Shown: positions 2,771 to 52,459 of the stretch, one piece after another | Layout of the letters: the number at the start of each line of letters is the position of its first letter | How positions within the stretch are numbered: position 1 is the stretch's first letter | DNA from: Carcharhinus amblyrhynchos | Taxonomy: Eukaryota | NCBI GenBank assembly: GCA_965287045.1 | Contig: OZ336879.1 | Coordinates: forward strand, 56,048,001-56,112,000 | Length of the DNA stretch: 64,000 bases | Direction of reading: 5' to 3' | Made by a program: the position numbers and the translations under genes | The notes under the pieces: generated by a model | Database searches by the model: none | Told to the model about the DNA's origin: nothing | Seen by the model: only the letters and a program-made list of their open reading frames with translations

Positions 2771-3776
2771 CCGATAGAGTGGATCTTTAATGATGGAGTC
2801 ACCTTCCAAAGAGACGATAGAAATGATTCAATTTAAAAAGGCCAAAGCTGGTAGGCCATCATCTGGATGGTCACTGGCTGCAGATCCTTCTCCCATAAAC
2901 AAAATAGCTCAGGGGTGGTTGCGTGCTGACAACCTGGCTGCTTTTTCCATATCAACTCACAGTCATCTCCACCATGGGTCCTGCCTTCATTGGGATCAAA
3001 ATTCTGCTCTACAACTATGTGTCCATTATCTTCTGAAACAATTCCAGCCCAATGTTTCATTGGTGTAATGAGGCAAATTTTTGAGGCTGGGAGTAAGGCT
3101 GTTATTGGAAAAAGACTGGGGGAAGTCTAGCATTACATTTGCTGTTTTCCTTGCTACATCTGACATAGTTCTTGCTGTCTCTGACAAATGCAGAATAAAT
3201 AGTCCTCTTCCTTTCACTGTTTTTATCTGAAGTGTACAAAAAGACAAAGAAGAAAGCAAAATAAAACAGAAAGGAAAAAGTCTATAATGCACATTCCATT
3301 ACTTTTATAATCCAAGGGTGATGACTTTAATAGCTCTGCCATGGAATTTTATTTAGTTTTACCTTTTGACTTCTTGTTGCATCAGTTAGTTATTCATTGA
3401 AACATAAAAGCATTTAAAATAACATGTTTACCCCGGTTCAGCGTTGGATGCTATAAAGTCACATTTAAACGTACAAGCACAATTGTATCGTTTGTATTAG
3501 TGAGATTACTCATTGTGCTTAGAATTAATAAGTTGCCACTAAAGAGTTCAAGGTTGTCACAAATCACAATTCAACCTGAAGTTGTTTTTATCCCTCTTTC
3601 CTTTAAGTTAGAGTCAAACCTTATGGGGGCAATTATCCCATCCCATTGTGCTAATTTTCTAGCGCAACAGGGTGGGAGAATCTTGAGGCTGGGCATGTGT
3701 GGGATCCGTGCATGGGTTCCTGCCGCATCCACGTTTTCCAGCGCCAGATTTCCAGTGTCGTCAGATCTGCACTGGA

Positions 3777-4081
3777 TTTTCTTTTTATTCCAATTCAATC
3801 CAATCAAATCCAATTTAGAGTCTCAACAAGTTGAGACATTCCCGATCCAAGCTGACAAGACAGGGCTCTCACCTCCTGTCTTGGGCTTGATCTACATGAT
3901 CCAAGCTGATTGGAGTAAGCATAGCTCCTCCTCCAAGGCTTGATCTCATTTGCATCTTTGCCAAAAGTCCGTGATGCCGCTTTAAAAAATTACTTCAAAT
4001 GAAGCTGAAATGTCACTTAATGACTTCAATCAAGCACAGCATGTTGATACTACACTTGATCTTAGCCAAAAGGCCGAGAAG
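3777..4081 (-). mobile_element. U2 snRNA-headed retroposon (SINEU-like) with poly(A) tail and TSD
   Basis: U2 nt 5-40 at the 5' end; AATAAA plus A-rich tail at the 3' end; flanking direct repeat agatctgcactgga (3763-3776) / agatctgtgctgga (4080-4093). Confidence 0.8.
4046..4081 (-). pseudogene. RNU2: U2 snRNA 5' fragment (nt 5-40, includes branch-point recognition GUAGUA)
   Basis: Minus strand reads CTTCTCGGCCTTTTGGCTAAGATCAAGTGTAGTATC, identical to the conserved vertebrate U2 5' sequence as recalled; the rest of U2 is absent. Confidence 0.92.
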
Positions 4082-4506
4082 ATCTGTGCTGGAAACCATC
4101 AGGAAGACAGGTAAGTCATTTGAATCTTTATTTAAATGTACTTTCAATGTAATTAGCGGGTCTGGGACTGAATTTCCTGGACCCATTAGCATCTCCCACC
4201 CTGCCAAAGTGTTTCACTCCAGCAGGGTTTACAGTAGCTCCCCACTTTTGGGGAACTAGCAGCCTGTCCCTGCTGAAGTGAAGGTAGAGGATTGAGCGCT
4301 GGTGGGAGGGAGAAGGGGGGGGTGCGGTGGTATCTCTTGAGCGTGAGCAGCCTGGCAGTGCCAGCCTGTGCCTGTTGGCAGTGCCCATGGGGTTAAGTGT
4401 CCACACCCAGGGGCCCTCTTGGCTCTGGGGTCCAGCGGTTGGGGCCTGATGGGGCAGGGCCTAGAGGCAATCGATGGGTGGCCTGGCTGCCACTCTGCTT
4501 TGGGAT

Positions 4507-4645
4507 CAACGTGTAAGTTAGGGAGATTAGCAGGGTGAATATGTGAGGTTGCAGAGGTGGGTTGGAATAAGATGTTCAATTTGAGTGTTGGTGGAGCCTT
4601 GATGAGCTGTAAAGGCCTCCTCCTACGCTATAGGCATTCTATGAT
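4507..4645 (+). mobile_element. 3' half of an HE1-type SINE
   Basis: gggagattagcagggtgaatatgtgagg...ggcctcctcctacgctataggcattctatgatt matches the tails of 22078-22400 and 32107-32409. Confidence 0.6.
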
Positions 4646-49288: not shown

Positions 49289-51334
49289 TTACAGATAGTG
49301 CGACATGAACCCGAGATCCTTGTTGAGACCGTCCTCATGTGTGCAGAACTTGGCTATCAGTCTCTGCTCAGTGACTCTGCGCAGTCGTGTATCGTGAAGG
49401 CCGCCTTGGAGAACGCTTACCCGAAGGTCAGAGGCTGAACGCCCATGACCACTGAAGTGTTCGCCAACAGGAAGGGAACAGTCTTGCCTGGTGATTGTCG
49501 AGAGATGTTCATTCATCCATTATTGTAGCGTCTGCATGGTCTCCCCAACGTACCATGCTTCGGGACATCGTTTCTTGCAACGTATGAGGTAGACAACGTT
49601 GGCCGAGTTGCAAGAGTATTTACCGTGTACCTGGTGGATGGTATTCTCACGTGTGATGATGGTATCCGTGTCGATGATCCGGCATGTCTTGCAGAGGTTG
49701 CTGTGGCAGGGTTGTGTGGTATTGTGGTCACTGTTCTTCTGAAGGCTGGGTAGTTTGCTGCAAACAATGGTCTGTTTGAGGTTGTGTGGTTGTCTGAAGG
49801 CAAGAAGTGGGGGTGTGGGGATGGCCCTGGCGAGATGTTCGTCTTCATCAATGATATGTTGAAGACTCCAGAGAAGATGTCGTAGCTTCTCCGCTCTCGG
49901 GAAGTACTGGACGACGAAGGGTACTCTGTCCACCATGTCCCGTGTTTGTCTTCTGAGGAGATCGGTGCAGTTTTTTGCTGTGGCGCATCGGAACTGTCAA
50001 TCTATGAGTCGAGCGCCATATCCTGTTGTTATGAGGGTATCTTTCAGCGTCTGGAGGTGTCTGTCATGATCTTCCTCATCTGAGCAAATCCTGTGTATAC
50101 GGAGGGCTTGTCCATAGGGGATGGCTTCTTTAACATGTTTAGGGTGGAAGCTGGAGAAGTGGAGCATTGTGAGATTGTCTGTGGGCTTGCAGTACAGTGA
50201 GGTGCTGAGGTGACCGTCCTTAATGGAGATGTGTGTGTCCAAGAATGCAACTGATTCTGGAGAATTGTCCATGGTGAGTCTGATGGTGGGGTGGAACTTG
50301 TTGATGTCATCATATAGTTGTTTCAGTGATTGTTCACCATGAGGCCAAAGGAAGAAAATGTCATCGATGTATCTAGTGTATAGCATCGGTTGAAGATTCT
50401 GTGCGGTGAAGAAGTCTTGTTCGAACCTGTGCATGAAGATGTTGGCATATTGAGGTGTGAATTTGGTCCCCATGGCTGTTCCGTGTGTCTGGATGAAAAA
50501 CTGGTTGTTGAAGGTGAAGACATTGTGGTCCAGGATAAAGCGGATGAGTTGTAAAATTGCATCTGGAAACTGGCAGTTGTCGGCATTGAATACTGAGGCA
50601 GTCGCAGCAATGCCATCGTCGTGGGGGATGTTGGTGTAGAGCGCTGAGACATCCATTGTGATGAGGAGTGTCCCTGGTTCAACTGTTCCATGTGTGCTGA
50701 GTTTCTGTAGGAAGTCCGTAGTGTCGCTACAAAAGCTGGGGGTTCTTTGTACAGTGGGTTTCAGGATGCCCTCGACGTAGTCGGAAAGGTTCTCACACAG
50801 AGTCCCATTGTCTGATCTGATGGGACGGCCGGGTGTGTTTGCCTTGTGTATCTTTGGGAGGCAGTAGAGATCTCCAACGCGGGGAGTACGTGGAATGAGA
50901 GCATGGAGGGTGCTCTGAAGGTCCGGATCAAAGGTCTTGATCAGAGTGTTGAGTTGACGAGTGTGTTCTTTGGTCAGATCTGTGGGTAATTGTCTGTAGT
51001 GTTCCTCATTGTTTAGTTGTCGGTACACTTCTTTACAGTAATCCGTTCTGTTCAGCATGATGATGGCCCCTCCTTTGTCTGCTGGTTTGATGACAATGTT
51101 GCGATTGGTCTTGAGAGCGTGAATGGCGTTGCATTGTGCTTGGGTGATGTTCGGGGCTGTCTTGTGAGTGCGGTTGATGAATCTGGTGTTAACGTACCTC
51201 CTGATGGTTTGGGTGTACAAGTCCAGTCGAGGGCAGCGGCCTTCCGGAGGAGTCCAGTTGGATTCCTTCCTCTTAGGTTGCTGCACTGCGGATCTCTCTG
51301 TTGGCTGTTCTGGTTCATTGGCTGTCTCATTGAC
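49289..51334 (-). pseudogene. Penelope RT + GIY-YIG endonuclease ORF, 5'-truncated, two in-frame stops
   Basis: IKPADKG, LPKIHK, MDVSALYTNIP, GTAMG, RYIDDIF; C..LCKTC linker; NVVYLIRC..C...YVGET; ORFs 49997-51358, 49520-49936 and 49289-49516 are in one frame, separated by TGA and TAA. Confidence 0.92.
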
Positions 51335-52459
51335 TTCTTCACCGCACAGAATCTTCAACCGATGCTATACACTAGATACATCGATGACATTTTCTTCCTT
51401 TGGCCTCATGGTGAACAATCACTGAAACAACTATATGATGACATCAACAAGTTCCACCCCACCATCAGACTCACCATGGACTATTCCCCAGAATCAGTTG
51501 CATTCTTGGACACACGCATCTCCATTAAGGACGGTCACCTCAGCACCTCACTGTACCGCAAGCCCACAGACAATCTCACAATGCTCCACTTCTCCAGCTT
51601 CCACCCTAAACACGTTAAAGAAGCCATCCCCTGTGGACAAGCCCTCCGTATACACAGGATTTGCTCAGATGAGGAAGATCATGACAGACATCTCCAGACA
51701 CTGAAAGATACCCTCATAACAACAGGATATGGCGCTCGACTCATAGATTGACGGTTCCGATGTGCCACAGCGAAAAACCGCACCGATCTCCTCAGAAGAC
51801 AAACACGGGACATGGTGGACAGAGTACCCTTCGTCGTCCCGTACTTCCCGGGAGCGGAGAAGCTACGACATCTTCTCCGGAGTCTTCAACATATCATTGA
51901 TGAAGACGAACATCTCGCCAGGGCCATCCCCACACCCCCACTTCTTGCTTTCAGACAACCACACAACCTCAAACAGACCATTGTTCGCAGCAAACTACCC
52001 AGTCTTCAGGAGAACAGTGACCACAATACCACACAACCCTGCCACAGCAACCTCTGCAAGACATGCCGGATCATCGACATGGATACAATCATCACACGTG
52101 AGAATACCATCCACCAGGTACACGGTAAATACTCTTGCAACTCGGCCAACGTTGTCTACCTGATACGTTGCAAGAAAGGATGTTCCGAAGCATGGTACAT
52201 TGGGGAGACCATGCAGAAGCTACGACAACGGATGAATGAACGTCGCTCGACAATCACCAGGCAAGACTGTTCCCTTCCTGTTGGCGAACACTTCAGTGGT
52301 CATGGGCGTTCAGCCTCTGACCTTCGGGTAAGCGTTCTCCAAGGCGGCCTTCACGATACACGACTGCGCAGAGTCACTGAGCAGAGACTGATAGCCAAGT
52401 TCTGCACACATGAGGATGGTCTCAACAAGGATCTTGGGTTCATGTCGCACTATCTGTAA
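51332..52459 (+). pseudogene. Second copy of the Penelope ORF C-terminal half (RT YIDD, thumb, GIY-YIG), one in-frame TGA
   Basis: YTRYIDDIFFLW...GARLID*RFRC...VVYLIRCKKGCSEAWYIGET...VGEHFSGHG...GLNKDLG; the two ORFs are in frame across TGA 51749-51751. Confidence 0.92.

Follow-up and report, generated by a model that had tools for sequence, protein, structure and literature searches.

A U2 snRNA-headed SINE family in the shark Carcharhinus amblyrhynchos and its probable mobilisation by a Keno-type LINE

Introduction

What is the short element with a U2 snRNA start that lies on the minus strand at 3777–4081 of a 64,000-nucleotide stretch of the Carcharhinus amblyrhynchos genome (assembly GCA_965287045.1, contig OZ336879.1, positions 56,048,001 to 56,112,000; the window hereafter), which enzymes moved it, and where was its RNA made? 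SINEs headed by small nuclear RNAs (SINEU) are described only from crocodilians, where they are linked to Tx1-Mar, and the available text of that description leaves their transcription open (PMC4494074); the status of SINEU as of 2018 is given, in the part of the source available, in PMC5786205. Keno (Tx1 clade) and Utopia are LINEs that target U2 genes (PMC4640811, PMC4494074; both in their available parts).

Results

Anatomy of the window copy and its target site

Table 1. Features of the window copy, its target-site duplication (TSD) and the surrounding repeat, in window positions
Feature	Position	Strand	Evidence
Old dispersed host repeat, left part, MITE-like	3624..3762	+	
TSD, 3' copy	3763..3776	.	
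AATAAA signal (3784–3789) and A-rich tail (3777–3783)	3777..3789	-	
Short pentamer repeat tract	3790..3815	-	
3' hairpin; one U-A pair has become C-G in the young subfamily, a compensatory change	3820..3837	-	columns 262–273: UA 23, CG 11
Structured unit 2: duplicated in tandem from unit 1 but differing in its 9-bp upper stem; loop highly variable	3844..3892	-	
Structured unit 1: lower stem, internal loop and upper hairpin, the last variable; subfamilies differ by a compensatory change at one pair	3898..3945	-	
Second copy of U2 stem-loop I (nt 4–27), closed by extra pairs	3952..3977	-	
Spacer between the two U2 segments, 68 nt	3978..4045	-	
T5–6 run common to the subfamilies; Sm-site-like, without the final G	3984..3989	-	
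Predicted hairpin: body pairs with U2 nt 26–36 and masks the branch-recognition sequence	4029..4060	-	
U2 snRNA head, nt 5–40 (stem-loop I and branch-point recognition sequence)	4046..4081	-	Rfam RF00004 and genome U2 genes
TSD, copy on the 5' side of the element; shares two bases with the start of the head	4080..4093	.	
Old dispersed host repeat, right part	4094..4508	+	

The head, which the original prediction had read as a perfect 36-nt segment from the U2 5' end, is identical at 36/36 positions to nt 5–40 of both types of U2 gene in the genome, and it is matched by the Rfam U2 family with E=6e-8 (Table 1). The second, degenerate U2 segment (3954–3977) has the 20/24 identity to U2 nt 4–27 that had been counted before; because the column majority of 30 copies departs from U2 at only one of these 24 positions, its decay is mostly private to the window copy. 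The spacer (put at about 70 nt beforehand), the repeat tract, the AATAAA signal and the A-rich tail are all as described earlier. The SINE is about 310 nt long including its A-tail, and an Rfam search of its body returned no family. The window copy folds, on its own, better than shuffled sequences (z of -2.84; 2 of 100 shuffles were as good). An identity as U2 snRNA gene or pseudogene is rejected, since colinearity with U2 fails over the full length and U2 identity is confined to nt 1–40 and the second stretch of nt 4–27. The window copy is a dead member of a U2-headed SINE family.

The 14-bp direct repeats that flank the element had been taken for a TSD in which a single CpG decayed differently in its two copies. 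Paralogs of the surrounding repeat that lack the SINE carry the target site once, and the ancestral CG is kept in one of 19 such empty paralogs (L162), others having CA or TG; the repeats are therefore a true TSD, and the CpG-decay reading is confirmed. As for the surrounding sequence, which had been called a DNA-transposon MITE, the part of this claim that stood is that it is an old dispersed repeat (about 3624–4508); terminal inverted repeats were sought in it and not found, so the label of MITE is unproven. A preference of the SINE for inserting into this repeat, also proposed earlier, was not borne out: among 110 other copies, not one has it at its flanks (0/110, for this one repeat family). 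Elsewhere in the window, 49997–51358 on the minus strand is a partial ORF for the reverse transcriptase (PF00078) of a LINE that is unrelated, and four other window ORFs of at least 150 aa had no Pfam match.

A recently active SINE family

Searched with a 305-nt query, the genome yielded 2583 first-look candidates, and with a second query 2931. The best 40 of the 2583 candidates, which were scored, are near full length, 92–94% identical to the query (besides the window copy itself) and spread over 21 contigs; 30 of the scored copies have a mean identity of 96.4% to their column majority and unrelated flanks. In a young subfamily the best 40 matches reach 98–100%, and a 36-mer diagnostic of this subfamily has 143 exact matches in the genome (control: 0). 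An old group was reached by using a diverged copy as query. TSDs abut 14 of 65 older copies (shuffled mean 0.5) and 20 of 47 younger copies (shuffled mean 0.27). With its distinct flanks, poly(A) and TSDs, the element is thus the multi-copy retrotransposing SINE that had been proposed, rather than a single-copy sequence, and that a real family of U2-headed, poly(A)-ending, TSD-flanked units exists is close to certain. The earlier reader knew of no such family in sharks; our literature search likewise found no published U2-headed SINE outside crocodilians and no Keno-mobilised SINE (this search covered the literature, with thin coverage of subscription journals; Repbase and Dfam were outside its scope).

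The 5' ends of the copies cluster at nt 1. Out of 30 loci picked by the last 94 nt of the element alone, 28 start at U2 nt 1–23, one at nt 49 and one at nt 145, and none of them (0/30) runs upstream into a LINE body. All copies of a subfamily have the same head-body junction and the same body.

A tree of 45 chosen copies has the form of a ladder leading from old to middle to young copies, with mean pairwise identities of 79.2%, 94.1% and 99.7%, respectively, and with terminal branches that shrink along the ladder from 0.04–0.17 to 0–0.003 (the age order rests on these terminal branch lengths; the midpoint root was used for drawing only). In the younger subfamilies alone does the U2 match extend to nt 40; in most old copies it stops at nt 36–37. 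The second U2 stem-loop is fixed in all subfamilies examined, and so the earlier notion of stacked U2 heads fails for it as a recent 5' addition; the notion does hold for sporadic extra U2 heads on single copies (L194, L336, L347 and L397). Short non-U2 5' extensions are common to a few copies (L228, L341, L351). Fifteen public sequencing runs (nine studies, eight organism labels, one run possibly being the source itself) contain at least half of the sampled words. The family is recently active and widespread.

Two loci have young SINE copies in tandem (L226 and L227), L226 holding three copies with one repeated TSD between them. In another copy (L289:673–890, minus strand, near the start of contig C334) 33 of 47 As are changed to G, whereas in 174 other copies the median is 3.8% and the highest value 18.6%; this excess is likely to reflect ADAR-type hyper-editing of the RNA before reverse transcription, or else it may be an assembly error at the contig end.

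A Keno-type LINE shares insertion sites with the SINE

U2 genes of two types are found in the genome, in a 10.55-kb array on contig C45 and in 407-bp arrays on contigs C98 and C334. The 407-bp type (G000, C98 and C334; L167–L172 and L289–L328) forms a compact tandem array with a variant 3' half. A search for the zf-RVT domain, in which 150 of 1155 candidates were scored (the partner LINE was judged among these), found Tx1-type LINEs with a 1190-aa ORF2 within the U2 arrays. The partner LINE has the order endonuclease, RT, zf-RVT, an APE-type endonuclease and a Tx1-like affinity by its named homologues; the named proteins most identical to a LINE ORF from this genome come from rays and sharks (49–59%), and those of tetrapods reach about 40%, as would fit an elasmobranch host. 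In 457 kb of the 407-bp arrays, all 44 insertions (44/44) end in an A-tail followed by U2 nt 39, each with the tail of the LINE; they occupy 44 of the 472 U2 junctions sampled in these arrays, the other 428 being intact. The insertion point in the U2 arrays is between nt 38 and 39, and the 5' junctions in the 407-bp arrays fall mostly at nt 45–57, not at nt 40. Keno and Utopia are reported to have the same 3' junction at U2 nt 39 (PMC4640811, available part). We call the partner Keno-type because of this junction and its APE-type endonuclease; judged from its sequence, it is an intact and young Keno-type Tx1 element.

Many Keno copies are dispersed outside the U2 arrays. For example, a full-length copy with two ORFs (L177:1909–7355) starts at U2 nt 1 and has a 25-bp TSD and no promoter; it lies outside the arrays, and Keno in this genome is not strictly U2-specific. 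At the edge of the 10.55-kb U2 array, Keno copies form tandem trains (L232 and L240; C45:1830001–1850000).

The contigs of the first 100 young SINEs of the match list contain 88 Tx1 matches, and four of these SINEs follow one of them at a distance of no more than 1.5 kb, where about 0.005 would be expected; a Keno tail is directly upstream of eight of the 100, and Keno is directly downstream of one (one of the 100 was read in part). At four loci (L216, L274, L275, L277) a single TSD is present in three copies, one at each outer end of the Keno-SINE pair and one at the boundary of its two members; since such tandems carry a TSD between their members, these were separate insertions. Young SINEs are also found at nt 38/39 or 37/38 of the heads of older SINEs (L207, L273, L283; L219, first flagged as such an insertion, proved a false call and was left out of this count). 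The eight SINEs behind a Keno tail, several with a triple TSD, indicate that both elements likely use the same endonuclease. The original prediction of mobilisation by a Tx1 element is borne out by these shared sites and TSDs, and it is very likely that Keno is the mobiliser of the SINE. Its further suggestion, that the body came from a Keno 3' UTR, found no support: a comparison of the body with two Keno families gave no match below E=0.07 beyond the U2 parts, and no 3' tail is shared between SINE and Keno. One Keno 5' UTR contains a short complement to the U2 head, of 10 nt in the array copy but 8 nt in the copy tested, and no weight was placed on it.

At four further loci (L012, L071, L231, L330) the SINE and Keno both lie at one site of another repeat, apparently the 5' region of a LINE. 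Head-to-head pairs of SINE with SINE and of SINE with Keno, 30–320 bp apart, were observed at L072, L104, L125, L137, L179 and L228; these pairs possibly arose by priming on both ends of one break.

Traces of U2 genes in SINE copies

Evidence for sources inside U2 genes, which the original prediction did not anticipate, comes from both sides of the element. Downstream, the tail is followed by U2 nt 39–47 or more in seven SINE copies (reversed control: 0); three copies run on to U2 nt 112–149, with their best match to the C45-type gene (86/88, 100/111 and 71/74). Such copies (L185, L189 and L190) could alternatively be SINE insertions into U2 pseudogenes, which exist in the genome. In L186 and L187 the U2 sequence stops at nt 47 and is followed by another A-tail, and L187, whose first base is nt 41, has no U2 sequence upstream; insertion into a U2 pseudogene cannot explain the pattern of these two copies, whereas read-through would, if the source lay in a U2 gene. 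Upstream, L191 has 12 nt from just before the 407-bp U2 unit as well as U2 nt 39–47, and L397 (one of 35 copies with an intact start) has 9 nt from just before that unit, with one CpG transition and lying behind a true U2 fragment. The Keno copy of L177 shows, in addition, that RNA of the partner can begin where U2 itself starts. Taken together, U2 nt 39 onward in seven copies, upstream U2 bases in two and the nt-1 start of L177 argue that the sources likely lay in U2 genes and used the U2 promoter. The U2 sequence that begins at the exact Keno junction and the flanks from two U2 gene types fit movement between U2 genes.

An intact source copy was not found. A pattern of promoter plus head plus body had one match, which is not a promoter, and neither U2 promoter was matched in the 47 copies that reach nt 1–2 or in 70 more young copies; 5' start positions called in this last set, unreliable where copies have indels, were not used. 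The search for a source took in about 115 of the 143 young copies. No SINE was among the 44 array insertions (0/44; 457 kb of 407-bp arrays), sequence flanking the C45 array and two small contigs yielded no source copy, and a search pattern for more extended read-through that ends in another A-tail had no matches. The missing source may have been lost, may be unassembled or may be among the remaining young copies, roughly 29 in number.

In three U2 retropseudogenes (L223, L224, L225) the sequence extends into the 3' flank of the C45-type gene, which means that unprocessed U2 precursors were retrotransposed.

Structure of the SINE RNA

Folding of the alignment gives, unprompted, a hairpin in which U2 nt 26–34 pair with the body. 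In a structure of 60 pairs, 93% are paired. The predicted pairing of the branch-recognition sequence, U2 nt 33–38, is 0.84–0.99 in three SINE copies, and 0.20–0.55 in two U2 genes and two Keno heads. In 22 old copies, hairpin loops are more variable than stems (0.233 vs 0.105), and unpaired positions outside loops are as conserved as stems (0.113 vs 0.105). Double-change cells number 31, against 15.5 after shuffling (0 of 500 shuffles reached this number) and 11–20 in slid controls; the pairs with double changes are 12, no more than in the slid controls (9–15), and the covariation comes mainly from two pairs, each probably reflecting one event. Selection on RNA structure is likely. That the hairpin serves to mask the branch-recognition sequence is a tentative proposal from the predicted fold, with a little less than an even chance in our judgement, and binding of Keno may be a candidate role of the structured body.

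Comparison with known elements

The shark element resembles crocodilian SINEU-1, -2 and -3, as characterised in the available text of their description (Kojima 2015, PMC4494074), in having a U2 head, more than one U2 segment, a length below 500 bp, poly(A) and TSDs, as well as tandem copies that sandwich a TSD, an internal oligo-T and sporadic extra snRNA heads; a Tx1-clade mobiliser and the lack of a LINE with the same 3' end are further likenesses. The features of the SINEU class are thus found in the shark family: a 5' head from U1 or U2 snRNA; a short (<500 bp), non-coding unit with 3' poly(A); movement as a unit, with dispersed copies, TSDs and no LINE with the same 3' end; and a Tx1-clade mobiliser, indicated by nicks shared with Keno, which is indirect evidence here as in the original paper. 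The same text also shows differences (PMC4494074). The partner of SINEU-1, -2 and -3 is Tx1-Mar, with Mariner-N4_AMi as target, whereas that of the shark SINE is a U2-targeting Keno, in which we found the Keno features of an APE-type endonuclease, Tx1-clade affinity and a 3' flank at U2 nt 39. The crocodilian elements prefer a non-autonomous DNA transposon, a feature that the shark SINE lacked (0/110) in the one repeat family tested. On transcription, left open in that description, shark copies offer the flanks of U2 genes that they carry, and their structured body is without a described counterpart in SINEU, a distinction that is drawn from descriptions, not sequences. We conclude that the shark element is a new variant of SINEU, by class features rather than by homology of the body sequence.

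Unlike Keno itself, the SINE encodes nothing, and the two have no common sequence beyond U2. R2 SIDE and the R2/R1 hybrid SIDE of 28S rDNA are likewise non-autonomous and associated with the target of a site-specific LINE in a multicopy RNA gene, and they are co-transcribed with the host RNA gene, in which respect we liken the shark SINE to them; a SIDE is, in the text available, an internally deleted LINE with a ribozyme 5' end that is found in rDNA (PMC3414825). The shark SINE, in contrast, is not derived from Keno, keeps the 5' end of the host RNA and has spread to thousands of sites. Identity as a SIDE is rejected, as the SINE is not built from the 5' and 3' ends of its partner LINE.

Discussion

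A proposed life cycle and its alternatives

The SINE shares the sites of Keno, and it is likely, reasoning from the copies in the genome, that it is copied by Keno enzymes and is transcribed only from sources at the Keno site in U2 genes. In a U2 gene with a SINE inserted between nt 38 and 39, the external U2 promoter would drive Pol II transcription that begins at nt 1 and runs through the insertion, so that U2 nt 1–40 would become the head of the SINE. The RNA would end at its own AATAAA and A-tail, sometimes reading on into U2 nt 39 and beyond, and would be reverse-transcribed by Keno ORF2p at sites with a weak preference for A before and T after the cut. Dispersed copies would be promoterless and die, which would account for the single, ladder-like lineage. 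From time to time a copy would re-insert into a different U2 gene, at its Keno site, and so renew the source, and array turnover would remove old sources. In the most speculative step, the predicted hairpin over the branch-recognition sequence would keep the U2-like RNA from disturbing splicing; candidate sites for the binding of Keno would be the second U2 stem-loop and the two duplicated units. A broader and more tentative reading, somewhat less probable in our judgement than its contrary, is that of a gene-squatting SINE: a promoterless lineage long sustained in sharks by re-insertion at the Keno site, switching between U2 types and a splice-safe hairpin, with thousands of U2-head decoys diverting Keno.

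The first of two alternatives that we consider unlikely, and of similar weight, is a standing, host-selected U2-derived ncRNA gene with its own snRNA-type promoter, of which the dispersed copies would be processed pseudogenes made by Keno. A single lineage of ladder form that spans 20% or more of pairwise divergence, loops of old copies that vary about twice as much as stems and 5' ends at nt 1 would all suit such a gene, and the Rfam alignment places the T-run on the Sm site of U2; but this Sm-like run is without the final G, no such gene was seen among about 115 young copies, and U2 nt 39 onward at the exact Keno junction, together with the flanks of two U2 gene types, speaks against it. In the other, to which we give marginally less weight, a single template switch to U2 RNA fixed the head, and transcription started from chance upstream Pol II promoters or by read-through from Keno, as proposed for crocodilian SINEU. 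Extra 5' pieces and U2 heads on single copies do point to frequent template jumps, eight of 100 young copies lie behind Keno, the non-U2 extensions of L228, L341 and L351 are of the kind expected, and no source was found in the U2 arrays. Yet the 47 copies that reach nt 1–2 have no common upstream sequence, the TSD between Keno and SINE in the tandems marks separate insertions, and this alternative leaves both U2 nt 39 onward and the upstream flanks of U2 unexplained.

Two further alternatives are much less probable than these. The SINE could be transcribed by Pol III from A-box-like and B-box-like motifs inside its U2-derived parts, and each of the two duplicated structured units does begin with a match to what we take to be the B-box consensus. 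Pol III terminates at T runs such as T5–6, and transcription by it is unlikely because of the T5–6 run at nt 97–102 in all subfamilies; the head has a T4 besides, no class of copies that starts after the T-run was seen among the 30 tail-selected loci, and AATAAA or variants of it precede the tail. We therefore give very little weight to Pol III transcription, and despite the B-box-like matches the element is not a classical Pol III SINE. Least probable of all, and in our view nearly negligible, is that the copies arose one by one as chimeras in which U2 RNA was joined to a Keno or Utopia 3' end. The head does stop close to the site of these LINEs, but all copies of a subfamily have the same junction and body, and no LINE with this body was found at the tail-selected loci or in the two Keno families compared.

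Significance

Promoter borrowing from U2 genes is a testable answer to how promoterless snRNA-headed SINEs are expressed, as the partner LINE is identified, intact and young, a subfamily at 99.7% identity is at hand and footprints of U2 genes occur on both sides of the element. The shark family extends SINEU-like elements beyond crocodilians, and it offers a case in which a site-preferring Tx1 enzyme moves a non-autonomous RNA in trans with no tail in common. SINE copies offer lineage markers for sharks. If the gene-squatting reading is true, the copies with U2 heads would be decoy targets that spare the real U2 genes from Keno.
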